DNA from: an uncultured Thermoplasmata archaeon
Lineage (GTDB): Archaea; Thermoplasmatota; Thermoplasmata; UBA10834
NCBI GenBank assembly: GCA_963787465.1
Contig: CAWBDD010000021.1
Span: forward strand, 80,598 to 144,597
Length of the DNA stretch: 64,000 nt
Direction of reading: 5' to 3'
Shown: piece by piece, positions 33,770 to 63,342 of the stretch
Layout: each line of letters begins with the position of its first letter
Position numbering within the stretch: position 1 is the first letter of the stretch
Notes under the pieces: model-generated
What the model saw: the letters and a program-made list of their open reading frames with translations, nothing else
What the model was told of the DNA's origin: nothing
The model's database searches: none
Program-made: the position numbers and the translations under genes

Positions 33770-33778
33770 GGGCTGAAG

Positions 33779-35986: not shown

Positions 35987-36020
35987 ACGTTTATCAACGG
36001 CCCCCGCATTCTCACGCCAG

Positions 36021-36248: not shown

Positions 36249-36254
36249 GTACCG

Positions 36255-36629: not shown

Positions 36630-37707
36630 GCTAAGGGACAGGGAGATGTCGAGGAAGGTCCTCGACAGGCTGGAGGCGATGAGGCTCGACCTCACCCTCA
36701 TGCACGTCTGCGGCACGCACCAGGACACCCTCATCAGGTTCGGCCTCGACGGCGAGTTCGCGAGAGTCGGGGTCGACATCCGTCAGGGGCCAGGATGCCC
36801 CGTCTGCGTCACGACGCCCAGGGAGATCGAGGAGGTGCTCGCGCTCGCAAGGAGCGGGCTCACCGTCGCCGTCTTCGGGGACGTGATGAAGGTCCCCGGT
36901 GAGACCGGGTCTCTGCACGATGCGAAGGCCGAGGGGGCCGACGTCAGGGTCGTGTTCGGGGTCGACGACGCCGTGGCTCTGGCCAAGAGCACGCAGAAGG
37001 AGACGGTCTTCATGGGCATAGGGTTCGAGACCACCGCCCCGACGACCGCCTCCGCGCTCGTAGCCGGCATGCCGCCCAACCTCTCCGTGCTGAGCTGTCA
37101 CAGGACCGTTCCGCCCGCGCTCAAGGCGATCGCGGGGATGGGCGACATCCGGTTGCACGGGCTGATCCAGCCAGGCCATGTGAGCACGATCATCGGGACG
37201 CGGCCGTACGAGTTCCTGTCGAAGGAACATCACATACCACAGGTGGTTGCCGGCTTCGAGCCGCTGGACCTGCTGATGGGCGTGTACATGATAGCGAGGC
37301 AGGTCAAGGAGGGGAGGGCGGAGGTGGAGAACGAGTACTCGCGCATCGTCCACCCCGAGGGGAACCCTGCGGCGCTGAGGGCGATGGATGAGGCTTTCGA
37401 AGTCACCGACGTCGTCTGGAGGGGTTTCCCGGTGATCGCCGGGAGCGGGCTGGAGGTCGGGCGACGGTTCGAGGACCACGATGCCAGGAAGCGGCACGAG
37501 GCCCTCCTGAGGGACGTCCATTCACGCGAGTTCCACGAGGCCAAGGGATGCAGGTGCGGGGAGATGCTCCGCGGGATCGCGAAGAGCGAGGAGTGCACCC
37601 TCTTCGGGAAGAAGTGCACGCCGTCGACGCCGATCGGTCCGTGCATGGTCTCCCGCGAGGGGAACTGCTACATCTCGTACAGGTATCAGAGCAGGGCCAA
37701 GCGGTGA
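36622..37707 (+). CDS. hypD: Hydrogenase maturation factor HypD
   Basis: CGTHQ, GPGCPVC and C-terminal CxxC motifs are present. Its start overlaps the hypA stop. Confidence 0.85.
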   Translation: MLRLRDREMSRKVLDRLEAMRLDLTLMHVCGTHQDTLIRFGLDGEFARVGVDIRQGPGCPVCVTTPREIEEVLALARSGLTVAVFGDVMKVPGETGSLHDAKAEGADVRVVFGVDDAVALAKSTQKETVFMGIGFETTAPTTASALVAGMPPNLSVLSCHRTVPPALKAIAGMGDIRLHGLIQPGHVSTIIGTRPYEFLSKEHHIPQVVAGFEPLDLLMGVYMIARQVKEGRAEVENEYSRIVHPEGNPAALRAMDEAFEVTDVVWRGFPVIAGSGLEVGRRFEDHDARKRHEALLRDVHSREFHEAKGCRCGEMLRGIAKSEECTLFGKKCTPSTPIGPCMVSREGNCYISYRYQSRAKR

Positions 37708-37940: not shown

Positions 37941-38122
37941 TCGTTCGCACGGCTGCGCTTTTCGAAATCCTCGCGGCGAAACCTATATTAACGGCGTCTC
38001 AATTATCGGTCAACCGTCGGAATTGATGGACCGAGTGGACGCGCCAGACCAACCACTGGCGACGCCCGGTGGGCACTCGGACCGACGCATCTACGACTTG
38101 CACGAGTACGAGGAGGGGGAAA

Positions 38123-40204
38123 GTGACCTCGTCCGATTCGCAACACGAGAACAAGAGCAAGGATGGTCCCGCGAAGCCGAGGGTCGGGGTGTTCGTCTGC
38201 CATTGCGGCAGCAATATTGCTGGCGTCGTGGACTGCGGCAAGGTCAGGGAGGCCGCGGAGAAGATACCCGGCGTCGTCGTCGCCAAGGAGAACAAGTACA
38301 CCTGCTCCGACCTCGGCCAGGAGGAGATCGTCAAGGCGATCAAGGAGAACGGCGTCGAGCGCGTCGTCGTCGCATCCTGTTCACCGAGGCTCCACGAACC
38401 CACCTTCAGGGCATGCATCCAGAGGGCGGGCCTGAACCCATACCTCCTGCAGATGGTCAACATACGCGAGCAGTGCTCGTGGGTGCACGCGCACGAGAAG
38501 GAGAAGGCCACCGAGAAGGCGAGCGCCCTCGTGCGCATGGGCGCCTCGAAGGCGGCCATACTGGAGCCACTCGAGGCGCGCGAGGTCCCGGTCGAGCCGT
38601 CGACGCTCGTGATCGGCGGAGGGGTCTCTGGCATACAGGCCGCGCTGGACCTCGCGAACATGGGGTTCAAGGTCCATCTCGTCGAGTCGAAGCCGAGCAT
38701 AGGCGGCGTCATGGCCCAGCTCGACAAGACCTTCCCGACGGGCGACTGCGCCATCTGCATACTCGCACCGAAGATGGTGGAGCTGTCGCGTCATCCGAAC
38801 GTCACGCTCCTCTCCTACTCCGAGGTCGAGGAGGTCAAGGGCTACATCGGCAACTTCGATGTGAAGATCAGACGCAAGGCCAGATACGTGGACGAGGCGA
38901 AATGCGTCGGCTGCGGCGTATGCGCCGAGGCCTGCCCCGTCAAGGTCGAGAACGAGTTCGACGAGGGGTTCGGCCAGAGGAGAGCGATATACGTCCCGTT
39001 CCCGCAGGCCGTGCCGCTGAAGTACACCATCGACAAGGTCCACTGCCTACACTTCAAGACCGGCAAGTGCCAGCTCTGCGTGAAGGCGTGCATGAACAAC
39101 GCCATAGACCACAAGATGACCGACGAGGTGATTACCCTGAAGGTGGGGACGATCATCGTCGCGACCGGGTTCGAGACCTACGTCCCGAAGAAGAACGGGG
39201 TCTACAAGTACTGGGAGTACGAGAACGTCATAACCGCTCTCGAGCTCGAGAGGCTCCTCAACGCGTCCGGACCGACCGGAGGCCATCTCACCAGACCATC
39301 CGACGGGCTCGTCCCGAAGCGCGTGGCGTTCATCCAGTGCGTCGGATCCAGGAACAAGAAGATAGGGAACAACTACTGCTCGCGCGTCTGCTGCATGTAC
39401 GCGATGAAGAACGCGCAGATCATCAAGGAGCACTATCCAGATACCGACATCGCCGTCTATTACAACGACATCCGCGCCTTCGGGAAGGGCTTCGAGGAGC
39501 TCTACCACAGGGTCAGGGAGGACTACGGCGTCGAGTTCATCCGCGGGAGGCCGGCCAAGCTGACCCGGAACAAGGACACTAAGGGGGTCATGATCAGGGC
39601 CGAGGAGACCCTGCTCAACAAGATCACTGAGAGGGAGTTCGACCTCGTGGTCCTCTCGACCGGGCTGGTCCCATCCGAGGGGACGAAGAGGATCGCCAAG
39701 ACTCTCAGCCTCACCGTGAGCCCGGACGGCTTCCTCGCCGAAGCGCATCCGAAGCTGAGGCCCGTGGACACGGCCATGGACGGCATCTACCTCGCGGGTT
39801 GCTGCCAGTCGCCCAAGGACATACCCGACTCCGTAGCGCAGGCGAAGGCCGCCGCGTCGTCGGCCGCCCAGCCCATGGCGACCAAGAAGGTCCGCATCGA
39901 GCCGCTCACGGTCACGATAGACGAGGAGGTCTGCGTCGGCTGCGGGCTGTGCGTCGAGCTCTGCCCGTACGGCGCGCCCGAGCTCGCCCAGGGGGAGAAG
40001 GGCGGCATGAAGGCACATATCATAGAGGCGCTCTGCCACGGCTGCGGCACTTGTGCCGCATCGTGCCCGCAGAAGGCCATCACCGCGAAACAGTTCACAG
40101 ATGAGCAGATCTCGGCCGAGATAGCCTCCGCGCTGGCCTCCGATGACGAGGGGCACGCGCCCAAGGGGCATCACGGGAAGAGGGACGCCGAGGCGGGGGT
40201 GTGA
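38123..40204 (+). CDS. hdrA: Heterodisulfide reductase subunit A (canonical ~690-aa form)
   Basis: N-terminal VGVFVCHCGSNIAG Cys-cluster domain. FAD GG motif VIGGGVSGIQAALDLA. Inserted and C-terminal 4Fe-4S ferredoxin CxxCxxCxxxCP motifs. GTG start at 38123 preceded by the RBS GAGGAGGGGG. Confidence 0.9.
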   Translation: MTSSDSQHENKSKDGPAKPRVGVFVCHCGSNIAGVVDCGKVREAAEKIPGVVVAKENKYTCSDLGQEEIVKAIKENGVERVVVASCSPRLHEPTFRACIQRAGLNPYLLQMVNIREQCSWVHAHEKEKATEKASALVRMGASKAAILEPLEAREVPVEPSTLVIGGGVSGIQAALDLANMGFKVHLVESKPSIGGVMAQLDKTFPTGDCAICILAPKMVELSRHPNVTLLSYSEVEEVKGYIGNFDVKIRRKARYVDEAKCVGCGVCAEACPVKVENEFDEGFGQRRAIYVPFPQAVPLKYTIDKVHCLHFKTGKCQLCVKACMNNAIDHKMTDEVITLKVGTIIVATGFETYVPKKNGVYKYWEYENVITALELERLLNASGPTGGHLTRPSDGLVPKRVAFIQCVGSRNKKIGNNYCSRVCCMYAMKNAQIIKEHYPDTDIAVYYNDIRAFGKGFEELYHRVREDYGVEFIRGRPAKLTRNKDTKGVMIRAEETLLNKITEREFDLVVLSTGLVPSEGTKRIAKTLSLTVSPDGFLAEAHPKLRPVDTAMDGIYLAGCCQSPKDIPDSVAQAKAAASSAAQPMATKKVRIEPLTVTIDEEVCVGCGLCVELCPYGAPELAQGEKGGMKAHIIEALCHGCGTCAASCPQKAITAKQFTDEQISAEIASALASDDEGHAPKGHHGKRDAEAGV

Positions 40205-40785
40205 GCATGGGCGAGGCGGAGAAGACCTTCATAGGCGGGCTCCACGAGAAGCTCACGGAGGACAAGGTCATAGACGAGTCGCAGCTCGACCGAGACTTCG
40301 CGAAGGAGATCACGAAGTACGGCGGGAAGGACGTCATGACATGCCTCCAGTGCGGCAACTGCACCGGTGTGTGTCCCATCTCGCTCAAGATCGATTACAA
40401 GACCAGGATCATAATGAAGTACTGCCAGTTCGGGCTCAAGAAGTACACCCTGGGGACGCAATGGGTCTGCGCCACCTGCTACAGATGCTACGAGCACTGC
40501 CCCGCTGACATCAACCCCGCAGAGGTCATGATCGCCCTGAGGCACATCGCGGTCCGCGAGGGGGCCATCCCGCCGTTCGTCAAGGTCGCGGCGACCAACC
40601 TCGTCATGTACGGCCAGAGCGTCAAGCCCGACGCCGAGATCGAGAAGATACGCAAGGAGCTGGGCCTTGAGGACGTCCACTCCAAGGACCAGGAGTACAG
40701 GGTCGTCCTGAGGGAGATCAGGACGATCGTGCAGGCGACCAAGTACGACAAGCTCATAGGGATCGACGCGGAGGTGAAGCAGTGA
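40201..40785 (+). CDS. hdrC: Heterodisulfide reductase subunit C
   Basis: Two 4Fe-4S motifs: CLQCGNCTGVCP and CATCYRCYEHCP. Its start overlaps the hdrA stop. Confidence 0.85.
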   Translation: MSMGEAEKTFIGGLHEKLTEDKVIDESQLDRDFAKEITKYGGKDVMTCLQCGNCTGVCPISLKIDYKTRIIMKYCQFGLKKYTLGTQWVCATCYRCYEHCPADINPAEVMIALRHIAVREGAIPPFVKVAATNLVMYGQSVKPDAEIEKIRKELGLEDVHSKDQEYRVVLREIRTIVQATKYDKLIGIDAEVKQ

Positions 40786-41699
40786 GCGCATACGCCTACT
40801 TCTTCGGATGCGTCATCCCCAACAGATATCCAGGCATCGAGTTCGCCGTCAGATGGGTCTGCGGCAAGAACGGGTTCGACCTCGACGTCAAGGACATCAA
40901 GGAGTTCTCCTGCTGCCCCGTCCCTGGCATATTCTACTCCACCGACAAGGACACGTGGCTCGCGCTGGCGACGCGCAACCTCACCCTGGCGCAGGACGAG
41001 AGGAGGGAGATCATGACGGTCTGCAACGGCTGCCTGACCTCGCTCCTCAAGGCCACCGAGTACCTCCAGGACCCGAAGACCATGGGCAAGGTCAACAGGA
41101 CCCTGTCCCAGGTGGGGAGGAAGTACACGGGGATACCGAGGAAGGGCGAGGGGACCCGGCGGGTCTTCGAGCCGGTCAAGGTGCGCCACTACGTCGATGT
41201 CATGAGCAAGGACGTCGGGATGGACGCGGTTGCGGCCAAGGTCACCCATCCCCTGAAGAACATCAGGGTCGCGGTGCACTACGGCTGCCACTACCTGAGG
41301 CCGACCGAGCACCAGACCTTCGACGACCCTAACGACCCGAAGCTGATCGACAGGATGGTCGAGGCATGCGGGGCCACGAGCGTCGAATACGAGGACAGGC
41401 TCGACTGCTGCGGCGCGGGCGGCGGCGTCAGGTCGCACGTGGTCGAGCTGGCCAACTCGCTCACGCAGGACAAGTGCGCGAACATCAGCGCGGCCGGCGC
41501 GGACTGCATAGTCACCGGTTGCCCGTTCTGCCTCCTGCAGTTCGACAACGCGCAGAAGGCGTTCTCGAAGGACGGCATACCCGTCATGCACATCTCGCAG
41601 TTCCAGGCGCTCGCGATGGGGATAGACACCATCTCGCTGGGCTTCGACACGCACCATGTCTCCGTACACTCGTTCCTCAGGAAGCTCAGGGGGGCATAG
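40782..41699 (+). CDS. hdrB: Heterodisulfide reductase subunit B
   Basis: Two CCG domains (..SCCPVPG.., ..CCGAGGG..). Overlaps the hdrC stop. Confidence 0.9.
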   Translation: MSAYAYFFGCVIPNRYPGIEFAVRWVCGKNGFDLDVKDIKEFSCCPVPGIFYSTDKDTWLALATRNLTLAQDERREIMTVCNGCLTSLLKATEYLQDPKTMGKVNRTLSQVGRKYTGIPRKGEGTRRVFEPVKVRHYVDVMSKDVGMDAVAAKVTHPLKNIRVAVHYGCHYLRPTEHQTFDDPNDPKLIDRMVEACGATSVEYEDRLDCCGAGGGVRSHVVELANSLTQDKCANISAAGADCIVTGCPFCLLQFDNAQKAFSKDGIPVMHISQFQALAMGIDTISLGFDTHHVSVHSFLRKLRGA

Positions 41700-42159
41700 T
41701 CTGACCGAGGGGACGAAGGGCATCGACCAGGGGGAGGAGCAGGCTCCTTCCTACGAGCCGAGGATAGTGGCCTTCTGCTGCAACTGGTGCTCCTACGCGG
41801 GGGCGGACCTAGCGGGGACGACGAGGCTGCAGTACCCCACCAACGTCAAGATCATCAGGGTCATGTGCTCGGGCAGGGTCGACCCGGCGTTCGTGCTGAA
41901 GGCGTTCGCCCTCGGGGCCGACGGCGTGATAGTCGCTGGCTGCCACCCGGCGGACTGCCACTACATCAACGGGAACGAGAAGGCCGCCCTTAGGGGCGAC
42001 TTCCTCCAGCAGTTCCTCGAGGACACGGGCATCGAACCCCAGAGGTTCCGGGTCGAGTGGATCGCCGGGTCCGAGGGCTCCAAGTTCGCGTCGGTCATCA
42101 GGCAGATGGTCGCCGACCTCGAGAGGCTCGGCCCCATGGCGCAGGAGGGAGGGCAGTGA
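41656..42159 (+). CDS. mvhD: Methyl-viologen-reducing hydrogenase delta subunit MvhD. The start is ambiguous: ATG 41656 overlaps hdrB by 44 nt; the alternative is GTG 41767.
   Basis: [15 protein letters not shown]...IRVMCSGRVDP...[15 protein letters not shown] is diagnostic of MvhD. Confidence 0.75.
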   Translation: MSPYTRSSGSSGGHSLTEGTKGIDQGEEQAPSYEPRIVAFCCNWCSYAGADLAGTTRLQYPTNVKIIRVMCSGRVDPAFVLKAFALGADGVIVAGCHPADCHYINGNEKAALRGDFLQQFLEDTGIEPQRFRVEWIAGSEGSKFASVIRQMVADLERLGPMAQEGGQ

Positions 42160-45100
42160 CTGGGAGGACCGTCGGCGCGGTGCTCGTGGTCGGGGGCGGC
42201 CCGGCGGGCATGCAGGCAGCGCTGGACCTCGCCGACTCCGGGTTCAAGGTCTACCTGCTCGAATCGGGGGCCAGCATAGGCGGCACCATGGCCCAGCTCG
42301 ACAAGACATTCCCGACCAACGACTGCTCCATGTGCATCATATCCCCGAAGCTCGTCGCCACCGGGAAGCACGAGAACATCACCATGATCACCCACGGCGA
42401 GATCAAGAAGGTCGACGGGAAGGCCGGGGACTTCAAGGTCAAGATCACGAGGCACTCGAGGTACATCGAGGAGGCGAAGTGCACTGGATGCGGCGTGTGC
42501 GCCGAGCACTGCCCGGTCGAGGGGACCAACGCCTTCGACAGGGACATGGCGCCGAACAGGGCGATCTACGTGCCGTTCCCGCAGGCCATGCCACTCGTGT
42601 ACACCATAGACAGGGGACTCTGCATCGGCTGCGGTGTCTGCGAGAAGTTCTGCGAGGCGAAGGCCATCAAGTACGACGAGGCCCCTGACAAGGAGGAGAC
42701 CATCGAGGTCGGGGCCATCATCCTGGCGCCTGGCTACGAAATCTTCGAGGCGAAGAAGAAGGTCCAGTACGGCCACGGGACCTTCCCGAACGTCCTGACG
42801 AACATCGAGTTCGAGAGGATGCTCAGCGCCTCGGGGCCCACCGAGGGGCACATCATCAGGCCCTCCGACGGCGACGTGCCGAGGAGGATCGCGTTCGTAC
42901 AGTGCGTCGGCTCGAGGGATGCGCAGACCCCGAACACCTACTGCTCATCGTACTGCTGCATGGCGGCTCTCAAGCAGGCCGTGATAGGGCAGGAGCACGT
43001 GCCCGGGCTCAAGACCACGATATTCTTCATGGACACCAGGGCGTTCGGCAAGGAGTTCGAGGAGTACCTCTCGCGCGCGGAGAACGAGTACGGCGTGCGC
43101 GTGTGCAGGAACAACAGGATACCCAAGGTCGAGGAGGACGCGGAGACCAAGGAGCTCATCCTCAGCTACATCGGCGGCGCCGACATATCCGAGGAGAGGT
43201 TCGACATGGTCATCCTGTCGTGCGGCGCACGGCCGCCGGACAGCGCCGGGCACCTCGCCAAGACCCTGGGCATAAAGCTCAACAAGTTCGGGTTCGCGGA
43301 GACGGACGACCTCACACCGGTCGAGACATCGGTGCCGGGCATCTTCGTCTGCGGCGCCTTCGCCGGTCCCAAGGACATCCCCGACTCGGTCGCACAGGCG
43401 AGCGGGGCGGCGGGGAAGGCCGACGCCCTCCTGGCGGACGAGCGCGGGAAGCTCGTCTCGAAGAAGGAGTACCCCAAGGAGAAGGACGTCGCAGGGAAGG
43501 AGCCCAGGATCGGGGTCTTCGTCTGCCACTGCGGCATCAACATAGGCTCCGTCGTCGACGTGCCCGCTGTCGTGGAGTACGCGAAGACGCTCCCGGGGGT
43601 CGTGTTCGCCGACAGGAACCTGTACACGTGCTCGGGCGACACGCAGACGCGGATCAGGGAGATCATCCAGAAGCACGACCTCAACAGGGTCGTGGTCGCG
43701 AGCTGCACGCCCAGGACACACGAGCCGCTCTTCCAGAACACGGTCAAGGAGGCGGGGCTGAACAAGTACCTCTTCGAGATGGCGAACATCAGGGACCAGT
43801 GCTCATGGGTCCACAGGCTGGAACCGGGGCGCGCCACCGACAAGGCGAAGGACCTCGTGCGGATGGCGGTCGCGAAGGCCTCGACGCTCGAGCCGCTCCC
43901 GCAACCCAAGATACCCGTCACCCCCTCCGCGATGGTCATCGGTGGAGGGCTGGCAGGGATGACCGCGGCGCTGACGATCGCGAACGCTGGCTACGAGGTC
44001 CACCTCGTCGAGAGGGAGAAGGAGCTCGGGGGCCACCTGAGACGGATACACCGCACCCTGGCGGGCGTGGACCCCCAGGACACCTTCAAGGACCTGAAGA
44101 GGCAGATCTCCGAGAACAAGAACATCAAGCTGCACCTCGGGGAGACACCGAAGGAGGTCAAGGGCTACATCGGCAACTTCGAGACCACCCTGAGCGGAGG
44201 GGAGAAGTTCAAGCACGGCGCGGTCGTCGTGGCGACCGGCGCGTCGGAGTACGAGCCCAAGGAGTACCTCTTCGGGAAGAACCCCAAGGTGATGAGGCAG
44301 ACCGACCTCCAGGAGCTCCTGGCCAGCAAGCAGTTCAAGGCCAAGACAGTCGTCATGATCCAATGCGTCGGCTCGAGGAACGAGGAGCACCCCAACTGCT
44401 CCCGCATCTGCTGCTCGACGTCCATGGCCAACGCGCTCTGGATAAAGAGGGAACACCCGGACACCAGCGTGTACGTGCTGTACAGGGACATCAGGACCTT
44501 CGGGTTCGCCGAGGAGAACTACAACGAGGCGGCCAGGCTCGGTGTCATCTTCCTGAGGTACGACCCCGAGGACCCGCCCAGGGTCACCGAGGAGGGCGGG
44601 CAGCTCGTCGTCGAGATCGACGAGACTTTCATCGAGCAGGGGGTCCGCATCAGGCCCGACTACCTCGTCCTCAACGCGGCTGTGCACCCGAACCCCGACA
44701 ACAAGGAACTCGCCCAGCTGCTCAAGGTCCCTCTGAACAAGGAGGGCTTCTTCCTAGAGGCGCACATGAAGCTGCGCCCGGTGGATTTCGCCACCGACGG
44801 GATATTCCTGTGCGGCCTGGCCCACTCGCCCAGGCTCATAGACGAGAGCGTCTCGCAGGCGCTCGCCGCGGCAGCCAGGGTGAACACGGTTCTCTCCAAG
44901 GAGTTCATAGAGGCGGATGGCATGGTCAGCGTCGTCGACCAGGAGAAGTGCGTGGCTTGCGGCAGGTGCGAGGAGGTCTGCCAGTACGGCGCACCCAGGC
45001 TCGAGGAGGTCTCGCCTGGTGTCGTCAAGTCGCGCATAAACGAGGCGCTGTGCAAGGGCTGTGGCTCCTGCGCGGTCACGTGCTGCACACGCGCCATCAG

Positions 45101-45194
45101 CCCGAAGCACTTCAAGAGCGAGCAGATACTCACCATGATCGAGGCGTGCCTGCGCAAGGACCTCGATAAGGTGGACGGGGAGGTCAAGGCATGA
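42156..45194 (+). CDS. hdrA: Tandem HdrA-like protein (1,012 aa): an N-terminal HdrA-like FAD/ferredoxin module fused in front of a complete HdrA
   Basis: Two FAD GG motifs: VVGGGPAGMQAALDLA at the N-terminus and VIGGGLAGMTAALTIA at ~aa 600. An internal RIGVFVCHCGINIG Cys-cluster domain. Ferredoxin motifs in both halves. A GTGA start/stop overlap with mvhD. Confidence 0.8.
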   Translation: MTGRTVGAVLVVGGGPAGMQAALDLADSGFKVYLLESGASIGGTMAQLDKTFPTNDCSMCIISPKLVATGKHENITMITHGEIKKVDGKAGDFKVKITRHSRYIEEAKCTGCGVCAEHCPVEGTNAFDRDMAPNRAIYVPFPQAMPLVYTIDRGLCIGCGVCEKFCEAKAIKYDEAPDKEETIEVGAIILAPGYEIFEAKKKVQYGHGTFPNVLTNIEFERMLSASGPTEGHIIRPSDGDVPRRIAFVQCVGSRDAQTPNTYCSSYCCMAALKQAVIGQEHVPGLKTTIFFMDTRAFGKEFEEYLSRAENEYGVRVCRNNRIPKVEEDAETKELILSYIGGADISEERFDMVILSCGARPPDSAGHLAKTLGIKLNKFGFAETDDLTPVETSVPGIFVCGAFAGPKDIPDSVAQASGAAGKADALLADERGKLVSKKEYPKEKDVAGKEPRIGVFVCHCGINIGSVVDVPAVVEYAKTLPGVVFADRNLYTCSGDTQTRIREIIQKHDLNRVVVASCTPRTHEPLFQNTVKEAGLNKYLFEMANIRDQCSWVHRLEPGRATDKAKDLVRMAVAKASTLEPLPQPKIPVTPSAMVIGGGLAGMTAALTIANAGYEVHLVEREKELGGHLRRIHRTLAGVDPQDTFKDLKRQISENKNIKLHLGETPKEVKGYIGNFETTLSGGEKFKHGAVVVATGASEYEPKEYLFGKNPKVMRQTDLQELLASKQFKAKTVVMIQCVGSRNEEHPNCSRICCSTSMANALWIKREHPDTSVYVLYRDIRTFGFAEENYNEAARLGVIFLRYDPEDPPRVTEEGGQLVVEIDETFIEQGVRIRPDYLVLNAAVHPNPDNKELAQLLKVPLNKEGFFLEAHMKLRPVDFATDGIFLCGLAHSPRLIDESVSQALAAAARVNTVLSKEFIEADGMVSVVDQEKCVACGRCEEVCQYGAPRLEEVSPGVVKSRINEALCKGCGSCAVTCCTRAISPKHFKSEQILTMIEACLRKDLDKVDGEVKA

Positions 45195-46786
45195 CCGAGG
45201 AGAGGTTCGAGCCGAGCATAGTGGCCTTCTGCTGCAACTGGTGCTCCTACGCCGGGGCCGACCTGGCGGGCGTGAGCAGGATGCAGTACCCACCGAACGC
45301 GAGGGTCATCAGGGTCATGTGCTCCGGCAGGGTCGAGCCGTACTTCATACTCAGGGCGCTGGAGCTCGGGGCCGACGGTGTCCTGATCGCAGGGTGCCAC
45401 ATAGGCGACTGCCACTACATCTCCGGGAACGTCGAGGCCGAGAAGCGCATGGCCGCGACCAAGGAGGTCCTCGACAGGCTCGGCATAGGCAAGGACCGGA
45501 TGCGCCTGGAGTGGATCTCCGCGTCCGAGGGCCAGAAGTTCGCCCAGACGATGAAGGAGTTCACGGAGCAGATCAGGAAGCTCGGGCCCAACCCGCTGGC
45601 GGGGAAGCTCCCGGAGAAGAAGCCGTCCGCTGACCTCAAGAAGAAGGTCGACCAGCTCATAGAGGACACCGGGGCGTTCGACTGCGTGGAGTGCGGGAAG
45701 TGCACCACGGTCTGCCCTGTGGCCAAGTACGACCCCGACTTCGCCCCCAGGACCATCGTCCTGAAGTCCATGGAGGGGCAGGTGAGCGAACTGTCCAAGG
45801 GCAAGGACATCTGGACGTGCGTCACCTGCGAGCAGTGCAACTCGATGTGCCCGTACAAGGTGGACTACTCGGGCTTCATACGCGGGCTCAGGACCGAGGC
45901 GGCCGCCTGCGACAACGTGCCCGTGTGCTCCCAGGGCGGGCTCATGCAGGGGGTCATGAGGGTCCAGGCGAACGGGTCCTTCAAGCAGGACAGGCTCACG
46001 TGGCTGACCCCTGACCTGAAAGTGGCGGACAAGGGGGACTACTTCCTGTTCACGGGTTGCGCGACATACTTCGACGCCATATTCAGGGACCGCCAGGAGC
46101 TCAAGCTCGCCGACATACCCCGCGCGGCGGTCAAGATCATGAACAGGGCGGGCATCGTCCCGGTCGTCAGCAACGACGAGGTCTGCTGCGGGCACGACCT
46201 CAACTGGACCGGGGACGAGGACGGCATGATGAAGCTCATGAAGAAGAACGTGGACCTGATCAAGGCGTCGGGGGCGAAGAAGGTGGTCTTCCCGTGCCCG
46301 GAGTGCCTCAGGACCTTCAACATGGACTACCAGGACTTCCTGGGCGACTTCGACTTCGAGCTGGTGCACATATCCCAGCTCGTGGACGACCTCCTGAAGG
46401 AGGGGAAGATCAAGCTCAAGAAGGGCGTCTCCAAGGTCACGTTCCAGGACTCCTGCAGGCTCGGGAGGCACATGGGCATCTACGACGAGCCCAGGGCTGC
46501 CATCAGGGGGACCCAGGCCGAGGTGGTCGAGATGGACAACACCAGGGACAAGGCCCTGTGCTGCGGCGTCAGCGCGTGGGCGACCTGCGACGAGGTCTCG
46601 AAGAAGATGCAGGTCGACAGGCTCAAGGAGGCGAAGCGGACCGGCGCCGAGTGCCTGGTGACCGGGTGCTACAAATGCCTGATACACCTTAACTGTGCGC
46701 AGGTCAACAAGACCCAGGTTCCCAAGGAACAGATAGACATACCGATCAAGGATCTGAGCGTGTTCATCGCGGACGCGCTGGAATGA
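45191..46786 (+). CDS. MvhD-HdrC-HdrB triple-domain fusion protein
   Basis: N-terminal MvhD domain ([15 protein letters not shown]...CHIGDCHY). Two ferredoxin motifs (CVECGKCTTVCP, CVTCEQCNSMCP). C-terminal CCG domains (CCGHDL, LCCGVSAW). ATGA overlap with the upstream gene. Confidence 0.8.
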   Translation: MTEERFEPSIVAFCCNWCSYAGADLAGVSRMQYPPNARVIRVMCSGRVEPYFILRALELGADGVLIAGCHIGDCHYISGNVEAEKRMAATKEVLDRLGIGKDRMRLEWISASEGQKFAQTMKEFTEQIRKLGPNPLAGKLPEKKPSADLKKKVDQLIEDTGAFDCVECGKCTTVCPVAKYDPDFAPRTIVLKSMEGQVSELSKGKDIWTCVTCEQCNSMCPYKVDYSGFIRGLRTEAAACDNVPVCSQGGLMQGVMRVQANGSFKQDRLTWLTPDLKVADKGDYFLFTGCATYFDAIFRDRQELKLADIPRAAVKIMNRAGIVPVVSNDEVCCGHDLNWTGDEDGMMKLMKKNVDLIKASGAKKVVFPCPECLRTFNMDYQDFLGDFDFELVHISQLVDDLLKEGKIKLKKGVSKVTFQDSCRLGRHMGIYDEPRAAIRGTQAEVVEMDNTRDKALCCGVSAWATCDEVSKKMQVDRLKEAKRTGAECLVTGCYKCLIHLNCAQVNKTQVPKEQIDIPIKDLSVFIADALE

Positions 46787-47196
46787 CAACTCGAGAAAGT
46801 GATAGGATGACACCGAACAAGGCCCAACAGCAGCCGCCGAAGGCTGACGAGAGGTTCGTGCTGATAGAGCTGTCCTGCAAGGACAAGAAGTGCTCGCCTT
46901 GCACGTACCCGAACTGCCAGAGGTTCGCGACCGAGCAACCCAAGAAGAAGCCGTACGAGACGCGCTTCTCGAGGATGTTCGAGGTCAAGAAGCCCATGAC
47001 CACGCCCGAGGCACCCAGGGAACGCCTGGTGCTCGTGGAGCTGTCCTGCAAGGACAAGAAGTGCTCGCCTTGCACATACCCGAACTGCCAGAGGTTCGCC
47101 AAGGCGACCACCCAGGAGAGGAAGAAGGCGCCTTTCAAGGTGAAGATCACGGAGATCGAGAAGGGCACGGACGTCTCGAAGCTCCTCGGCAAGTAG
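46783..47196 (+). CDS. Small tandem-repeat Cys-cluster protein (2 x C-x4-C-x2-C-x4-C), last gene of the hdr module
   Basis: 137 aa. The 27-aa block ER(F/L)VL(I/V)ELSCKDKKCSPCTYPNCQRFA occurs twice. The underlying 66-nt DNA repeat (46870-46935 versus 47040-47105) differs by one base. The start overlaps the upstream stop (ATGA). Confidence 0.55.
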   Translation: MTTRESDRMTPNKAQQQPPKADERFVLIELSCKDKKCSPCTYPNCQRFATEQPKKKPYETRFSRMFEVKKPMTTPEAPRERLVLVELSCKDKKCSPCTYPNCQRFAKATTQERKKAPFKVKITEIEKGTDVSKLLGK

Positions 47197-47206
47197 CAGG
47201 CTGGAG

Positions 47207-47219
47207 TGCTTAACGAATG
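47207..47219 (+). promoter_or_regulatory. Second copy of the TGCTTAACGAATG motif, 181 nt upstream of the start of the second hdrA-like operon
   Basis: See the entry at 37928-37940. A CATATG-ACGCA-CATATG inverted repeat also lies at 47346-47362. Confidence 0.4.
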
Positions 47220-47399
47220 AGAGCATGGGCGGCAGGGGAGAGCGACCGGAATCGTCGCGTGACCAACGAAACAGATAAAGCGATGAATTGGTTACCGAAG
47301 GGCGCGCCTAGGCCACCGGGCCGGGCCTGCTTGACATCTGCCGGTCATATGACGCACATATGTGAACAGGGAGTATCTAGTAATCGTGGAGGTCTTTGA

Positions 47400-48698
47400 A
47401 TGGAGAAATCGGTCTTGGTTATAGGAGGGGGTGTCGCGGGCATACAGGCCGCGCTCGACCTCGCTGACAAGGGGATAATCGTTCACCTGGTCGAGAAGAC
47501 CCCGAGCATCGGCGGGAGGATGGCGCAGCTGGACAAGACGTTCCCCACGAACGACTGCTCGATCTGCATCCTCGCGCCTAAGATGGCGGACTGCTTCAGC
47601 CACCCGAACACCAACGTCATCACCTACGCCGAGGTCGTCGGTGTCGAAGGGAAGGTAGGGAGCTTCAAGGTCAAGGTGCTCAAGAAGGCCAGGTACGTCG
47701 ACGAGACGAAGTGCACTGGCTGCGGCGAGTGCCTCGAGAAGTGCCCGAGCAAGGTCGTCAACGACTGGGAGCAGGGGCTGACCAACAGGAAGGCCATCTA
47801 TGTCCCGTTCATGCAGGCGGTCCCGAGGGTCATGACCATCGACAAGGACAACTGCCTCATGCTCACGAAGGGCAAGTGCGGGAACTGCAAGAAGGCCTGC
47901 AAGAGGGAGGCCATCAACTACGAGATGAAGGACCAGATCCTGGAGCTCGAGGTCGGCTCCATCATAGTCGCCACCGGGTTCGATGTCTGGAACCCGACGA
48001 CATCCACCGAGTACGGCTACGGCAGGTACCCCAACGTCTTCACGGCGATGGAGTACGAGCGCATGATCAACGCCGCCGGGCCGACCCACGGGCACATCAA
48101 GAGGAGGTCCGACGGCCAGCGCCCGATGAGGATGGCGTTCATCCAGTGCGTCGGGTCGAGGAACCCGACGACCGGCCACCCGTACTGCTGCGGCGTCTGC
48201 TGCATGCACTCCACGAAGGAGTCGATGCTGGCGCGGGAGCACTACGACGACATCGAGTCGACCATATTCTACAAGGACATGAGGGCCTGCTCGAAGGGCT
48301 TCTGGGAGTACGTGGAGCGCGCGAAGCGCGACTACGGTGTCAGGTACATCAACTCGGACGCCACGGTGCAGGAGAACGCTGACAACCACAACCCGATCGT
48401 GGTCTACGACGTGGGCGGAAGACAGCAGTCGGAGGAATTCGACCTGGTCGTCCTCGCCACGACACTCGTCCCCAAGAAGGAGACCCTGGAGCTGGCGAAG
48501 CTGCTGGGAATCAAGGCCGACGAGTTCGGATTCCTGGAGAGCGCCGACAGGATACTGGCGCCAGGGACCACCATCGTGCCCGGCATATACCTGGCCGGAT
48601 ACTGCGCAGGACCGGCGGACATACCGGAGAGCGTCGCTCAGGGCTCGAGCGCGGCGGCCAAGGCTGCCGAGGCAATCGCCCAGGCCGGAGGAGGATGA
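47400..48698 (+). CDS. Truncated HdrA-like flavoprotein (FAD/thioredoxin-reductase-like core plus inserted ferredoxin; lacks the HdrA N- and C-terminal cluster domains)
   Basis: VIGGGVAGIQAALDLA, CTGCGECLEKCP, and the FIQCVGSRN...CCGVCCMHS region. It corresponds to the N-terminal half of the fused 42156-45194 protein. Confidence 0.75.
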   Translation: MEKSVLVIGGGVAGIQAALDLADKGIIVHLVEKTPSIGGRMAQLDKTFPTNDCSICILAPKMADCFSHPNTNVITYAEVVGVEGKVGSFKVKVLKKARYVDETKCTGCGECLEKCPSKVVNDWEQGLTNRKAIYVPFMQAVPRVMTIDKDNCLMLTKGKCGNCKKACKREAINYEMKDQILELEVGSIIVATGFDVWNPTTSTEYGYGRYPNVFTAMEYERMINAAGPTHGHIKRRSDGQRPMRMAFIQCVGSRNPTTGHPYCCGVCCMHSTKESMLAREHYDDIESTIFYKDMRACSKGFWEYVERAKRDYGVRYINSDATVQENADNHNPIVVYDVGGRQQSEEFDLVVLATTLVPKKETLELAKLLGIKADEFGFLESADRILAPGTTIVPGIYLAGYCAGPADIPESVAQGSSAAAKAAEAIAQAGGG

Positions 48699-48702
48699 TC
48701 CG

Positions 48703-50572
48703 ATGACCACCCATGACAAGGCGGAGAAGCCAAGGATCGGAGTGTTCGTCTGCCACTGCGGCTCGAACATCGGCGGGTTCGTCGATGTGCCGTCCGTCGC
48801 GGAGTATGCCAAGACCCTCCCCGACGTCGCGTTCGCGACCGACAACCTGTACACCTGTGCCGAGGACGGCCTCAGCAGCATCAGGGAGGCCATAAGGAAG
48901 CACAACCTCAACAGGGTCATAGTCGCCAGCTGCACGCCCAGGACCCACGCGCCCCTGTTCCAGGCCACCTGCGAGGGGGCCGGGCTGAACAAGTACCTGT
49001 TCACATTCGTGAACATCAGGGAGCACTGCTCCTGGGTCCACATGAAGGAGAAGGACCTGGCCACGAAGAAGGCCAAGGACCTCATCAGGATGGGGGTCGC
49101 GCGGGCGCGCCTGCTCATCCCCCAGGAGGAGGTCAAGGTCGACGTGGAGCCAGTCGCGCTCGTCATCGGCGGAGGAATAAGCGGCATGACCGCGGCGCTG
49201 TCGATGGCGGAGATGGGCTTCCCGGTGCACCTCGTCGAGAAGGAAGGCGAGCTCGGTGGCTTCGTCAAGATACTCAACAACCTGTACGTGACGGACAAGA
49301 CCGCCGCGGACACGATCAAGCCGCTGGTCGACAAGGTGATGAGCGCACAAGAAGATCAAGGTCTACACCGGCTCGACCGTCAAGAGCGTCGAGGGCTTCA
49401 TCGGCAACTACGAGATAGTCATAGGCAAGAAGGGAGCCGACGACGTCAAGGCCAAGGTCGGCACGATCGTCGTGGCCACCGGGGCGCTCGAGTTCATCCC
49501 CGAGGGGCTGTACGGGTACAACCAGTACCCCAACGTCGTGACGCTGACGGAGTTCGAGATGCTCTGCAGGAAGAAGACCCTGCCGAAGCTGAAGAACGTG
49601 GCGTTCATCCAGTGCGTCGGGTCCAGGGGACAGGTCAAGTCGTACTGCTCCAGGATCTGCTGCAATGTCTCGATCAAGAACGCGGTCAACATCGTCGACA
49701 ACTACGACAACATGCTCGGGGCGGCCGAGAAGCTCGGCACGGTGATCGAGAAGGTCCCGGTCGAGAAGAAGGCCACAGACGAGATACTGGAGCGCAGGCG
49801 CAGGAGGCGCGGGCGCGACGCTGGGACCGACGAGGGCGGGGCCGAGGAGGTCAAGCTCGGACCGTCGGAGAAGATCGAGGTCACCGTCTTCAACAGGGAC
49901 GTGATGGCGTACGGCGTCGAGCACGAGCTGCAGTTCAACAAGGCGAGGGAGAAGCGCGTCAAGTTCGTGAGATACACGACAGACCACCTCCCGAAGGTCT
50001 TCATGGAGGGCAACCAGCTGATGCTGACCTACTTCCACGAGACCCTGAAGCTCGAGAGGACGATGCCGGTCGACATGGTCATACTGGCGACGCCGCTAGT
50101 GGCGCAGCCGGACGCGGACCAGCTGTCGAAGCTGCTCAAGGTGCCGCTCGGCCAGGAGGGGTTCTTCCTCGAGGCGCACGTCAAGCTCAGGCCAGTGGAC
50201 TTCGCGACGGACGGCATATACTGCGCCGGCACCTGCCGCGGACCCGCGGACATAACCGAGTGCGCGTACCAGGGGAGCGCGGCGGCCTCGAGGGCCGCCA
50301 TCCCGATGGCGAAGGGGTACGTGCAGGCCGAGGCGATCACCAGCGTGGTCGACGAGACCAAGTGCACCGGGTGCGGGACCTGCATGCAGGTCTGTCCGTA
50401 CGGCGCGCTCAGGAAGAACGACAAGGGCTACGCCGAGGTCATAGTGGCCGCGTGCAAGGGATGCGGCTGCTGCGGGGCGACCTGCCCCGAGGGCGCGATA
50501 ACGATGACGAACTACACCGATGCACAGCTCCTGGCTGAGGCCAGGGCGGCCCTCGAGGAGGGATTGCAGTGA
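48703..50572 (+). CDS. hdrA: HdrA paralog with an apparent +1 frameshift near 49343-49349. As read, it is in two frames: 48703-~49347 and ~49349-50572.
   Basis: N-terminal RIGVFVCHCGSNIGG and VIGGGISGMTAAL. After ...DKVMSA the frame turns to junk, and the authentic HdrA continuation (KKIKVYTGSTVKSVEGFIGNYEIVIGKKG...) is in the +1 frame. The C-terminal ferredoxin motifs are intact. Confidence 0.6.
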
Positions 50573-51372
50573 GTGACCAGGTCAAGAAGGAGCAGAGCGG
50601 GGAGTTCGAGCCCAAGGTCATCGGGTTCCTCTGCAACTGGTGCTCCTACGCAGGGGCGGACCTCTGCGGGGTCAGCAGGTACCAGTACCCGACCAACATC
50701 CGCGCGGTGAGGGTCATGTGCTCGACCAGGATCAGCCCGCACCTCGTCCTCGACCTTTTCAGGGCTGGGGCGGACGGCATCCTGCTCGGTGGCTGCCACA
50801 TAGGCGACTGCCACTACATATCCGGGAACTACTACACCGAGAAGCGCGTCAGGCTCATGAAGAAGCTGCTCGAGGAGAGCGGCCTGGAGCCGGAGCGCCT
50901 CAGGCTGGAGTGGGTCTCGGCCTCCGAGGGCGAGAAGTTCTCGAAGGTCGTGAGCGAGTTCACGGAGCACGTGAGGAAGCTCGGCCCCAGCAAGGTCAAG
51001 AGCGACCCGGTCCAGAGGGACAAGGTCGCGGCCGCGGACGCCGCAGGCGAGACCTTCAGGCTGAGGGCGCTGGTCGGCAAGGAGCTCAACCTTGTCCAGA
51101 AGGGGAACGTGTACGACAACAAGCTGGACCCGGTCGAGCTGCAGAAGATCATCGACCACGCGACCGAGGAGGAGTTCGAGCGCGCGCTCATACTGGAGCT
51201 GAGCCGCTCGAAGCCCAGGTCGGTCAAGGAGCTCGGACAGATCATGGACGTGCCGACGGACAAGGTCCTGAGGCACATAGTGGCGCTCCGTCAGAAGAAC
51301 ATGATAACGATGGAGCACCCGGACGGGTTCACACCCACATACAAGACCATAGAGATCGGAGGTGAGCACTGA
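50569..51372 (+). CDS. MvhD domain protein fused to a C-terminal winged-helix-like domain
   Basis: N-terminal [14 protein letters not shown]...CHIGDCHY (MvhD). The C-terminal ~90 aa (ALILELSRSKPRSVKELGQIMDVPTDKVLRHIVALRQKNMI) is homologous to the free-standing protein at 54867-55257. GTGA overlap with the upstream stop. Confidence 0.75.
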   Translation: MSDQVKKEQSGEFEPKVIGFLCNWCSYAGADLCGVSRYQYPTNIRAVRVMCSTRISPHLVLDLFRAGADGILLGGCHIGDCHYISGNYYTEKRVRLMKKLLEESGLEPERLRLEWVSASEGEKFSKVVSEFTEHVRKLGPSKVKSDPVQRDKVAAADAAGETFRLRALVGKELNLVQKGNVYDNKLDPVELQKIIDHATEEEFERALILELSRSKPRSVKELGQIMDVPTDKVLRHIVALRQKNMITMEHPDGFTPTYKTIEIGGEH

Positions 51373-54300
51373 TGGCTACCACGGACAAGATCGGGGCAGT
51401 AATGGTCGTCGGTGGCGGCATCTCGGGGATGCAGTCGGCCCTGGACCTAGCGGACCAGGGGTTCAAGGTCTACCTGATCGAGAAGCAGCCGAGCATCGGC
51501 GGCGTCATGGCCCAGCTCGACAAGACCTTCCCGACCAACGATTGCTCCATGTGCATCATGGCCCCGAAGCTGGTCGCCACCGGCAGGCACCACAACATAC
51601 AGCTGATCACGAACGCCGAGATAGCGATAGTGGATGGCCAGGCAGGCAACTTCACCGTCACGGTGAAGCAGCGCGCCTTCAGGGTCGACACGACCAAGTG
51701 CACGGGCTGCGGCAGCTGCGCGCAGAAGTGCCCGATCGAGACCGCCGACGAGTACAACGAGGGCACGAAGGTGCGCAAGGCGATATTCGTGCGCTACCCG
51801 CAGGCGGTCCCGCTGGTGTACAGCATCGACCCTGAGAAGTGCATCGGTTGCGGCATCTGCGCCGAGGAGTGCAAGGCCAAGGCCGTCGCGTACGACCAGA
51901 AGGAGAGGGTCATCGAGATCAACGTCGGATCGATCATCGTCTCGCCCGGCTTCGAGGAGTTCAACGCGAGGCTGAAGAGCGAGTACGGGTACGGCGTCTA
52001 CCAGAACGTCGTGACGAGCATCGAGTTCGAGAGGATGCTCAGCGCGACCGGGCCGTACTTCGGGTCCGTGCTCAGGCCCTCGGACGGCGACATACCGGAG
52101 AAGATAGCCTTCATCCAGTGCGTCGGCTCCAGGGACGAGCATGTCGGCAACGAGTACTGCTCCAGCGTGTGCTGCATGTACTCCATCAAGGAGGCCGTCA
52201 TCGCGAAGGAGCACGGCGGGAACATCAAGCCCACCATCTTCTTCATGGACATGAGGGCCTTCGGCAAGGAGTTCGACGAGTACTACAACCGCGCCCAGAA
52301 GGAGTACGGGATCAGGTTCGTCAGGTCCAGGATCGCATCCGTGGTCGAGGACCCGAAGACCAAGAACCTGATGCTCAAGTACACCGGAGAGGGCGAGCCC
52401 AAGGAGGAGGCGTTCGACCTCGTCGTGCTGGCGGTCGGGCTGAGGCCCGCTGCGGACGCCGAGGCGCTGAGCCGGATCATGAAGTTCAGGCTCAACGACG
52501 ACGGCTTCTGCCAGACGGGGACCTTCGCCCCGGTCGAGACATCGCGTCCGGGCGTCTACGTCAGCGGCGCGTTCTCCGCGCCCAAGGACATACCGATGAC
52601 CGTCGCAGAGGCGAGCGGCGCGGCCGCGAAGGCCGCCTCCGACATCGCCGGCGCCAGGGGCACGCTCGTCACGAAGAAGGAGTACCCCAAGGAACTCGAC
52701 GTCACGGGCCAGGAGCCCAGGATCGGGGTCTTCGTCTGCCACTGCGGCATCAACATAGGCGGGGTCGTGAAGGTCCCGGAGGTCGCGGAGTACGCGAAGA
52801 CGCTGCCGAACGTGGTCTACGCCGAGCAGAACCTGTACACCTGCTCCCAGGACGCGCAGGAGCGCATCAAGGAGAAGGTCAAGGAGCACAAGCTCAACAG
52901 GGTCGTGGTCGCGAGCTGCACGCCCAGGACGCACGAGCCCCTGTTCCAGAACACCATCAGGGAGGCGGGACTGAACCCGTACCTCTTCGAGATGGCGAAC
53001 ATCAGGGACCAGTGCTCGTGGATACACATGCACGAGCCGAAGGCCGCCACGAAGAAGTCCAAGGACCTCGTGCGCATGGCCGTCGCGAAGTCGAGGCTCC
53101 TGGAGCCGCTCGAGAACCTCGAGATCAACGTCAACCAGGCCGCCATGGTCATTGGCGGCGGGCTGAGCGGGATGACCGCGGCCCTGGAGCTCGCGAAGCA
53201 GGGCTTCCAGGTCCACCTGGTCGAGAAGGAGAAGCAGCTCGGGGGCAACCTCGGAAAGCTGCACTACCTGCCGACGGGCGACGACCCGAAGGCGCACCTC
53301 GACGCGATGGTGAAGGAGGTCATGTCCAACCCGCGGATCAAGACGCACCTCGGGACGACCGTGAAGACCATCGAGGGGTACGTCGGGAACTTCAAGACCG
53401 ACCTCGTGAACGGCCAGAAGGTCGAGCACGGCGCCGTCATCGTGGCCATCGGCGGCCAGGAGTACAAGCCGGAGGGCGAGTACCTCTACGGGAAGAACAA
53501 GGGCGTCATGACCCTCCTCGAGTACAAGGACAAGTTGTCGAAGGGCGAGGTCAAGGGCGGGACGACCGTGTTCATCCAGTGCGTCGGGTCCAGGGAGGAC
53601 AAGCACCCGAACTGCTCCCGCGTCTGCTGCACCGGCACGATGACCGCGGCGATCAAGACCAAGGAGAAGGACCCAGCGTCCACGATATACGTGCTCTACC
53701 GCGACATCAGGACCTACGGCTTCAGGGAGAAGTTCTACAAGGAGGCCAGCCGGAAGGGCGTGACCTTCATCAGGTTCGAGGACGGCACCAAGCCGAAGGT
53801 GGAGGAGAAGGGCGGGAAGCTCGAGGTGACCGTGAAGGACGAGGACACCGGCAAGGATGTCATCCTCAGGCCGGACCACCTGGTCCTCGCTTCGGGGACG
53901 AGGCCGTCCCACGATATCGAGACGCTCGCGCCGATGCTGAAGGTGCCCGTCACGCAAGGAGGGATTCTTCCTCGAGGCGCACATGAAGCTCCGGCCGGTC
54001 GAGTTCGCCACCGAGGGCGTGTACCTGGCGGGCCTCGCGCACGGACCCAAGTTCGTGGACGAGAGCATCGGGCAGGCGCTCGCGGCGGTGTCGCGCGCCA
54101 TGACCGTCCTGTCGAAGACCACCCTCGAGGCGGAGGGCATAGTCGCGAGCATAGAGGAGACCCTCTGTGACGGCTGCGGCATATGCGTCCCGACCTGCGA
54201 GTACAAGGCCCTCGATGTCCTCCCGGACAAGAAGGACCCGAAGAAGAAGATCGTCGAGGTCAACGTCGGCCTGTGCAAGGGCTGCGGCGCCTGCGTGGGC

Positions 54301-63319: not shown

Positions 63320-63342
63320 CGCGGGTGATGTGTGAGAACGAG

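Follow-up and report, generated by a model that had tools for sequence, protein, structure and literature searches.

A small protein with two four-cysteine modules at the end of an Hdr/Mvh operon of an uncultured Thermoplasmata archaeon: an ancient tandem duplication and a possible accessory redox role

What is the small gene that closes an Hdr operon in an uncultured Thermoplasmata archaeon (lineage UBA10834), and why does it contain two almost identical stretches of DNA? The gene, here called gene X, lies on contig CAWBDD010000021.1 of assembly GCA_963787465.1, directly behind the genes for a double HdrA (HdrAA) and an MvhD-HdrC-HdrB fusion. It was analyzed within positions 80,598 to 144,597 of the forward strand, a stretch of 64,000 nt that we call the window and to which all coordinates refer. 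Gene X encodes a real, strongly constrained basic protein of 129 aa whose tandem duplication is ancient. Its product could be a two-centre, probably iron-sulfur (Fe-S), accessory subunit that relays or adapts electrons for the HdrAA / MvhD-HdrCB module, a reading to which we give about even chances. The gene and its parts are as follows.

46807..47196, plus strand: gene X, small two-module cysteine protein, 129 aa, delimited by the family-consensus start and by recorded products.
46843..47013, plus strand: repeat unit 1, 57 codons, ADERFVLIELSCKDKKCSPCTYPNCQRFATEQPKKKPYETRFSRMFEVKKPMTTPEA, orthologous across genomes, with the conserved tail KKKP(F/Y)ETRMTKMFE.
47014..47184, plus strand: repeat unit 2, 57 codons, PRERLVLVELSCKDKKCSPCTYPNCQRFAKATTQERKKAPFKVKITEIEKGTDVSKL, orthologous across genomes, with the conserved tail KKAPFKVKVTEIEKG.
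46876..46917, plus strand: cysteine motif 1, C-x4-C-x2-C-x4-C (CKDKKCSPCTYPNC), from family conservation.
47047..47088, plus strand: cysteine motif 2, C-x4-C-x2-C-x4-C (CKDKKCSPCTYPNC), from family conservation, matching PF04060 positions 6-27.

An initial annotation of this DNA had described an open reading frame (ORF) of 137 aa at 46783-47196 on the plus strand, and this frame is present in the sequence. The start is probably ATG 46807, which gives 129 aa and not 137 aa. This ATG encodes Met9 of the longer ORF, the invariant first residue in the family alignment A1, and gene callers have recorded the exact 129-aa product on other contigs and the 137-aa product never. The in-frame upstream ATG 46783, probably not the true start, shares bases with the stop codon of the gene before it (ATGA), and a near-identical strain (locus L070) has a 1-nt insertion or deletion (indel) at 46789, between both candidate ATGs. 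Compared with its closest relative, L067 (90.6% nucleotide identity), gene X shows nonsynonymous and synonymous proportions of difference (pN and pS) of 0.019 and 0.376, and the corresponding ratio of substitution rates (dN/dS) is 0.019/0.521, about 0.04. With such a ratio in the frame of X, the minus-strand ORFs that overlap it are excluded as coding. The protein has an isoelectric point (pI) of 9.58, with 29 Lys and Arg residues against 15 Asp and Glu, and its cysteines number exactly eight, all inside the two 14-residue motifs.

Its description as a novel small protein is supported by the dN/dS value, by the lack of any curated Pfam or NCBIfam family matching X at cut-off, and by the names of its homologues, which are all 'hypothetical protein'. 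The named source organisms are all Thermoplasmata, Thermoplasmatota or Methanomassiliicoccales metagenome-assembled genomes (MAGs). A search of 5.8 billion proteins with X as the single-sequence query gave 211 related clusters, a profile built from distant members gave 271, and an exhaustive HMMER scan of 1.84 billion cluster representatives yielded no more than 28 clusters at 50% identity, a sign of a small and narrow superfamily. A full-text literature search for 'CX4CX2CX4C' found no paper, and in papers on Thermoplasmata Hdr/Mvh systems and archaeal fusions, where HdrA duplications and MvhD fusions are mentioned, X was not found.

The protein contains two copies of ER(F/L)VL(I/V)ELSCKDKKCSPCTYPNCQRFA, each with a C-x4-C-x2-C-x4-C arrangement, just as first reported. 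The duplicated unit exceeds the cysteine module in size: the full 57-codon units align without gaps at an identity of only 65% in DNA and 47% in protein, and the divergence lies outside the core. Both units hold an invariant E-L-S-C-x4-C-x-P-C-T-Y-P-x-C-Q-R motif. In the numbering of the 129-aa protein, C24, P31, C32, T33, Y34, P35 and C37 of motif 1 are invariant and C29 nearly so; in motif 2 the invariant residues are C81, C86, P88, C89, Y91, P92, C94, Q95 and R96.

How old is this duplication? Two C-x4-C-x-P-C-T-Y-P-x-C motifs, with starts 56-59 residues apart (57 in about 100 cases), are present in 119 of the 120 homologues listed; the exception, P0091, has seven cysteines and misses one in module 1. 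All 45 genomic loci in the repeat analysis are likewise two-module, down to 39% identity and with motif starts 52-70 residues apart, and this set includes MAGs labelled Methanomassiliicoccales at 39-50% identity. At variable positions, first units (R1) share an identity of 0.66 with each other and second units (R2) 0.62, against 0.51 for R1 with R2 between genomes and 0.53 within a genome. R1 and R2 are therefore separate orthologous lineages, which group by position rather than by genome. Since the paralogous units are less alike than the orthologous ones, and two modules are found family-wide, the very recent intragenic duplication proposed at first is refuted. A self-comparison of the diverse alignment A4 with hhalign returned the trivial diagonal only.

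It could still be asked whether the second copy is an assembly expansion, or the ORF non-coding or miscalled. Together with very recent duplication, this explanation has in its favour the raw 62-nt near-identical repeat only, and the imperfect sequence quality of the window, where two apparent 1-nt insertion frameshifts occur elsewhere. Against it stand the two-module architecture in over 100 independent assemblies, the dN/dS of 0.04 and the divergence of the unit flanks to 47% protein identity. The gene and both its repeat copies are also present in an independent ENA assembly, L070, which over 6.2 kb differs from the window by 38 substitutions and three indels (99.3% identity) and within the gene by a single change, at 47013, outside both repeat cores. 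This comparison excludes an assembly artefact, and we consider the whole explanation next to inconceivable.

If the modules are so old, then we can ask: Why is their DNA almost identical? The two copies of the DNA repeat are placed as follows.

46867..46928, plus strand: DNA repeat copy 1, 62 nt, one mismatch to copy 2 (ACG vs ACA at 46905).
47038..47099, plus strand: DNA repeat copy 2, 62 nt, offset by 171 nt from copy 1.

A repeat finder reports a single direct repeat, 46858-46928 against 47029-47099, with 71 nt, 94% identity and a spacing of 171 nt; if a single mismatch is allowed, the repeat shrinks to 62 nt. A near-identical repeat thus exists, as the initial annotation had noticed, but not one of 66 nt with a single difference: the offset is 171 nt, not 170, and 66 nt at this offset bring five mismatches. 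The interval 47040-47105 given for the second copy is one base out of register and yields 52 mismatches as written.

Taken as raw DNA, the 62-nt repeat is far beyond chance. That both copies encode the same 21 core residues (ELSCKDKKCSPCTYPNCQRFA) follows from the motif itself, which hardly varies in the family. Thirteen of the 21 core codons specify C, D, E, F, K, N, Q or Y; for these amino acids the preferred codon is used in 93-100% of cases, and two independent draws agree with a probability of 0.86-1.0. Only eight core codons (L, S, S, P, T, P, R, A) are informative. If codons are drawn independently from the codon usage of the window, 5.6 synonymous differences between the copies are expected and two are seen (ACG/ACA and GCG/GCC), with P(<=2) = 0.023, which is not significant given that the window is the lowest of the 27 related genomes compared. 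Counted over the 21 core codons, the copies differ synonymously at two in the window, five in L067 and L068, four in L069 and three in L001.

In the close clade (26 genomes) the synonymous difference is 0.242 within genomes, 0.275 for R1 against R2 between genomes and 0.261 for orthologous copies; in the distant clade it is 0.50 within and 0.51 between genomes. Differences within and between genomes being nearly equal, synonymous sites are essentially at codon-usage equilibrium. The same pairs of values lead us to reject pervasive concerted evolution, and they leave the earlier suggestion of ongoing gene conversion weak, as do the five, four and three differences in the nearest relatives. The slight excess of similarity within genomes could be explained equally well by genome-specific codon bias, and part of the signal by which R1 looks like R2 in comparison with L067 is due to changes in the L067 lineage, as the outgroups L069 and L001 indicate. 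A single feature hints specifically at conversion: both window copies use CCT, a rare proline codon (6% of Pro codons), whereas CCG, CCA or mixtures stand there in relatives. No other derived state is shared by the two copies in this genome. The data permit a short conversion tract, no longer than 62 nt, and do not require one. The DNA identity is largely the outcome of strong purifying selection on an identical peptide and of extreme codon bias, and as such a by-product the repeat would have received a contribution from at most one short gene-conversion event.

What kind of module has been kept so constant? The best Pfam match of X is PF04060 'FeS' (E = 5-6e-4, 19.9-20.1 bits), with C86, C89 and C94 on profile positions 6-27. 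No other Pfam family was matched as widely as PF04060 in alignment A4, whose 78 members go as low as about 35% identity: 33 of them reached E <= 0.01, the best at 7.9e-7. A precomputed PF04060 match is recorded for a minority of homologues, for example P0040, P0080, P0093 and P0097. Weak NCBIfam matches to RsxB/RnfB (residues 84-105) and to PRK07118 'Fe-S cluster domain' cover the same region. In RnfB, CdhE and AcsC a CX2CX4CX16CP motif ligates a [4Fe-4S] cluster (PMC4023990). Like these PF04060 proteins (RnfB/RsxB, CdhE, AcsC), X has C-x2-C-x-Y-P-x-C-x2-[FY]-A, and this segment, including the following aromatic residue and alanine, is present in both modules as CSPCTYPNCQRFA. Unlike them, X has no fourth Cys-Pro at x16, has an invariant cysteine four residues upstream instead, and carries its module tandem-duplicated in a free-standing basic 129-aa protein. 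The module fails PF04060 membership, yet plausibly works like PF04060. No classical Fer4 family was matched by X, and the CX2CX2CX3CP motif is absent.

The site was first thought to be rubredoxin-like or a zinc ribbon. A metal site is indeed plausible, whereas the paired CxxC knuckles of that comparison are absent. Like rubredoxins and zinc ribbons, X is small, and the four cysteines of each module could bind one metal ion; unlike them, with their two CxxC, it has a single CxxC (C-S-P-C) with a lone flanking cysteine at x4 on each side, so that the spacing is 4-2-4 within 14 residues. If the Cys4 site were mononuclear, each module would bind a single ion, either Zn(II) in a structural knuckle or Fe in the rubredoxin manner, and X would serve the Hdr module as a structural adaptor or by carrying single electrons. 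We treat this tentatively as a real possibility. The four invariant cysteines within 14 residues suit it, as do weak matches to zinc families among the 78 members (IBR in 29, Zn_Tnp_IS91 in seven, DUF3268 in four) and the small, basic, Lys-rich character that X shares with many archaeal zinc-finger micro-proteins. The retroviral zinc knuckle C-x2-C-x4-H-x4-C is similarly compact. On the other side, neither rubredoxin (PF00301) nor any zinc-ribbon family appears at E <= 1 in the Pfam scan of X, only one CxxC pair is available per module, and C-x-x-C-x-Y-P-x-C-x-x-[FY]-A fits the RnfB-type Fe-S motif better. The IBR matches mean that motif similarity does not discriminate iron from zinc, and the motif does not tell an Fe-S cluster from a Zn or Fe(Cys)4 site; Fer4_11 was matched weakly by one of the 78 members.

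A further comparison can be made with the loop C-x6-C-x2-C-x5-C of endonuclease III and MutY, where four close cysteines of a basic protein bind a cubane [4Fe-4S] cluster. X resembles it in the central C-x2-C within a basic protein, as an analogy only: the cysteines are spaced differently, the fold context is another and the sequences do not match. Neither the family profile nor a single module matched any PDB sequence, even at E <= 10. Structure prediction, a check suggested with the initial annotation, did not settle the fold: AlphaFold2 gave no confident model, with a mean predicted local distance difference test (pLDDT) score of 39.9 from A1 (37 sequences) and 48.6 from A4.

The genomic position of X offers another kind of evidence. 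Its immediate surroundings are these.

42057..45194, plus strand: double HdrA (HdrAA), 1045-aa ORF, first gene of the trio, from Pfam and synteny.
45191..46786, plus strand: MvhD-HdrC-HdrB fusion, 531 aa, the upstream partner of X, from Pfam, NCBIfam and synteny.
47197..47399, plus strand: intergenic spacer, 203 nt, which ends the transcription unit of X.

The fusion comprises FlpD/MvhD, 4Fe-4S dicluster and two CCG domains, and in HdrAA the homology to relatives begins around residue 32-49. The order HdrAA, MvhD-HdrCB, X, spacer, next HdrA is conserved in relatives. Among the 42 loci with at least 1.3 kb of upstream sequence, 40 have the C-terminus of HdrCB no more than 400 nt upstream of X (median gap 38 nt), and the next HdrA follows within 500 nt downstream in 44 of 48 loci. 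The two exceptions in synteny are L040, where X stands directly after HdrAA, and L037, a second copy in a non-hdr context. The search for homologues beside hdr genes, also suggested at the outset, thus revealed a conserved linkage, and the proposed partnership with the MvhD-HdrCB fusion is well borne out by gene position; as a physical association it is putative. X itself has no FlpD, CCG, Fer4 or Pyr_redox domain in Pfam and NCBIfam scans. As it lacks homology to HdrA, HdrB, HdrC and MvhD, it is by sequence a new component, tied to the complex by gene position only. In this position it can be likened to MvhB, the polyferredoxin of the Methanothermobacter mvhDGAB operon, an accessory protein with no defined catalytic role and presumed to be an electron relay. 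Like MvhB, X is a candidate metal-cluster protein encoded at the end of an Mvh/Hdr operon; unlike MvhB with its twelve canonical CX2CX2CX3CP motifs, it has none.

The same linkage allows a different interpretation, in which X is not a carrier but a substrate. Its cysteines, with a thioredoxin-like C-S-P-C, would cycle between thiol and disulfide, and X would be reduced at the HdrB-type CCG site in the manner of DsrC, a small protein that is the substrate of the CCG-domain enzyme DsrK and the proposed substrate of Flx-Hdr. The gene follows immediately after, and only after, a subunit with two CCG domains; many MAGs of this lineage are regarded as non-methanogenic and would lack the heterodisulfide of coenzymes M and B (CoM-S-S-CoB); and CCG-domain enzymes have in DsrC an accepted protein substrate. 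Like DsrC, X is small, contains cysteines and is genetically linked to an HdrB/CCG-type disulfide-reducing module. Unlike DsrC, which has two cysteines on a C-terminal arm, X has two sets of four inside conserved modules, and Pfam, NCBIfam and PDB searches gave no similarity of X to DsrC, TusE or thioredoxins. All four cysteines are invariant along with the neighbouring T-Y-P-N and Q-R, as one would sooner expect of a metal site. We regard a substrate role as unlikely. Its more specific form, with disulfides or per-/poly-sulfides in the modules reduced by the noncubane-cluster CCG site of MvhD-HdrC-HdrB, seems to us equally improbable.

Additional information comes from relatives outside the hdr context. 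The superfamily also has single-module proteins of 48-80 aa, and a conserved single-module paralogue of about 50 aa was found at L060:8004-8156 (...YEQIETSCREKYRCTPCTYPNCQRSVRL...), L054:7995-8138 and L057:7962-8111, among the loci L049-L066. It is a free-standing gene with the pattern W-N-x-x-Y-E-x-I-E-T-S-C-x5-C-x-P-C-T-Y-P-N-C-Q-R. In 17 loci its neighbours are pyrD-pyrK, about 160 nt upstream, and a convergent gene for an HMGL-like synthase on the other side; the 18th locus, L066, begins inside the gene. These loci belong to the same genomes that carry X, and the paralogue is not in this window. The first cysteine of its module stands five residues upstream, against four in X, and this variable spacing shows a tolerance of the kind expected for a ligand on a loop. 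Here a paralogue of X occurs without any CCG protein nearby, unlike DsrC, and this speaks against the substrate role. PyrK is the electron-transfer subunit with flavin adenine dinucleotide and a [2Fe-2S] cluster. As both contexts, hdr and pyrD-pyrK, involve flavin/Fe-S electron-transfer proteins, they tip the balance mildly towards a redox carrier and away from an HdrB-dependent substrate. A second two-module copy without hdr genes around it occurs in the MAG CSMAG_404 (L037:7977-8510), with arginine decarboxylase, SNase, RibD_C and SUKH-family genes as neighbours.

Could X instead be a basic zinc-knuckle protein, either a nucleic-acid-binding regulator of the hdr/mvh operons or an assembly chaperone? 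Its pI of 9.6 and Lys/Arg-rich linkers would agree with this, and so would the second copy at L037, the conserved intergenic block after X (AACGAAACAGATAAAGCGATGAATT, 47265-47289, conserved in alignment A5 with L067, L069 and L001) and the missing stable AlphaFold fold, which is compatible with folding on a partner. Opposed to these are the tight operon coupling to HdrCB in 40 of 42 loci, typical of complex subunits, and the result of Pfam and NCBIfam scans, in which X shows no DNA-binding domain. We think a regulator or chaperone very unlikely.

We return, then, to the accessory redox subunit. Most likely each unit of X would hold one metal centre through its four invariant cysteines. The preferred centre is an Fe-S cluster on the C-x2-C-x4-C segment of RnfB/CdhE type, with the fourth ligand shifted from 16 residues downstream to four residues upstream. 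Encoded by the gene that closes the HdrAA / MvhD-HdrCB operon, X would act as a small electron relay or adaptor of the module formed by HdrAA and MvhD-HdrC-HdrB. Several observations weigh against this proposal. The PF04060 match of X is below the Pfam gathering threshold (23 bits) and spans only the C-x2-C-x4-C segment, with the Cys-Pro at x16 missing; the zinc-binding IBR matches in 29 of 78 members compete with it. The AlphaFold2 confidence is lowest over the cysteine modules, with no stable fold. X is basic, typical ferredoxins are not, and the members of the family are so far uncharacterised. Finally, both the single-module paralogue and the L037 copy lack an hdr linkage.

The wider neighbourhood of gene X has been delimited as follows.

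33077-37707: hypB, hypF, hypA and hypD.
38069-40204: HdrA.
40201-40785: HdrC.
40782-41699: HdrB.
41656-42159: MvhD.
47400-54170: further HdrA / MvhD / HdrAA module.
55260-57796: MvhG and MvhA.
57860-59390: HycI and HypE.

This part of the window is an Hdr/Mvh hydrogenase supercluster with three Hdr modules, a redox setting that suits the accessory-subunit reading, and its gene order is kept in relatives. The spacer behind X contains the block AACGAAACAGATAAAGCGATGAATT, shared by four relatives, then an imperfect palindrome at 47331-47366 (TTGACATCTGCCGGTCATATGA / TCATATGACGCACATATGTGAA) and a Shine-Dalgarno-like GGAGGT site ahead of the next hdrA (ATG 47400); a promoter or operator for the second hdr operon may lie here. 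A promoter and terminator scan found nothing; its consensus is bacterial and poorly suited to archaea.

The third HdrA-like unit consists of two adjacent genes, 47400-48698 (432 aa) and 48703-50572 (about 622 aa). The split, with a stop after ...AQAGG, is found also in L001, L009, L014 and L016, and in L003, L004, L021 and L028 the unit is apparently a single long gene. Two hdrA-like genes are broken by 1-nt insertions relative to L001, at 49344 and 53954, of which the first is present also relative to the 99.3%-identical L070. One-base deletions restore ORFs of 622 aa (from 48703) and 1010 aa (from 51372), the latter with relatives of 1011-1012 aa. L070 has extra bases of its own at 46789 and 48314. 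These single-base insertions look like assembly indel errors, not biology. In the double-HdrA gene, 24 of the 38 substitutions between the window and L070 fall within 44548-44786, a stretch of 240 nt that looks like a recombination tract; conversion from a paralogous hdrA in the window was tested as its source and is unsupported, the identity being only 70-86%.

Three further features were recorded. A conserved ORF of 92 aa, 54979-55257, lies between the MvhD-like gene and mvhG, at the same position in most related loci; it belongs to no Pfam family and has a weak NCBIfam match to an ArsR/SmtB-type helix-turn-helix (E 0.002). A fluoride riboswitch (RF01734) was identified at 1068-1131 on the minus strand (45.5 bits, E 2e-9). 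A transfer RNA (tRNA) match of 106 nt at 63343-63448, minus strand, suggests an intron-containing archaeal tRNA and overlaps the annotated start region of a PAS/histidine-kinase ORF, 61463-63376, by about 30 nt.

What does gene X mean for its family and hosts? At the DNA level it is a caution that near-identical intragenic repeats in high-GC genomes can arise from constraint and codon bias, without recent duplication. At the protein level, the motif of four cysteines in 14 residues is matched by no curated model above cut-off, has no relative in the PDB and was given no confident fold by AlphaFold. Electron-bifurcating complexes of the Hdr/Mvh type are widespread in non-methanogenic archaea. 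The X family is a strictly conserved, lineage-specific extra gene of one Hdr module. If X were a thiol substrate, the question of what these Hdr complexes reduce would have its answer: a dedicated 'protein heterodisulfide' in Thermoplasmata lacking CoM-S-S-CoB would be the long-sought Hdr substrate of non-methanogens. If X binds a cluster, Hdr complexes would gain a new subunit and Fe-S proteins a new minimal binding module.

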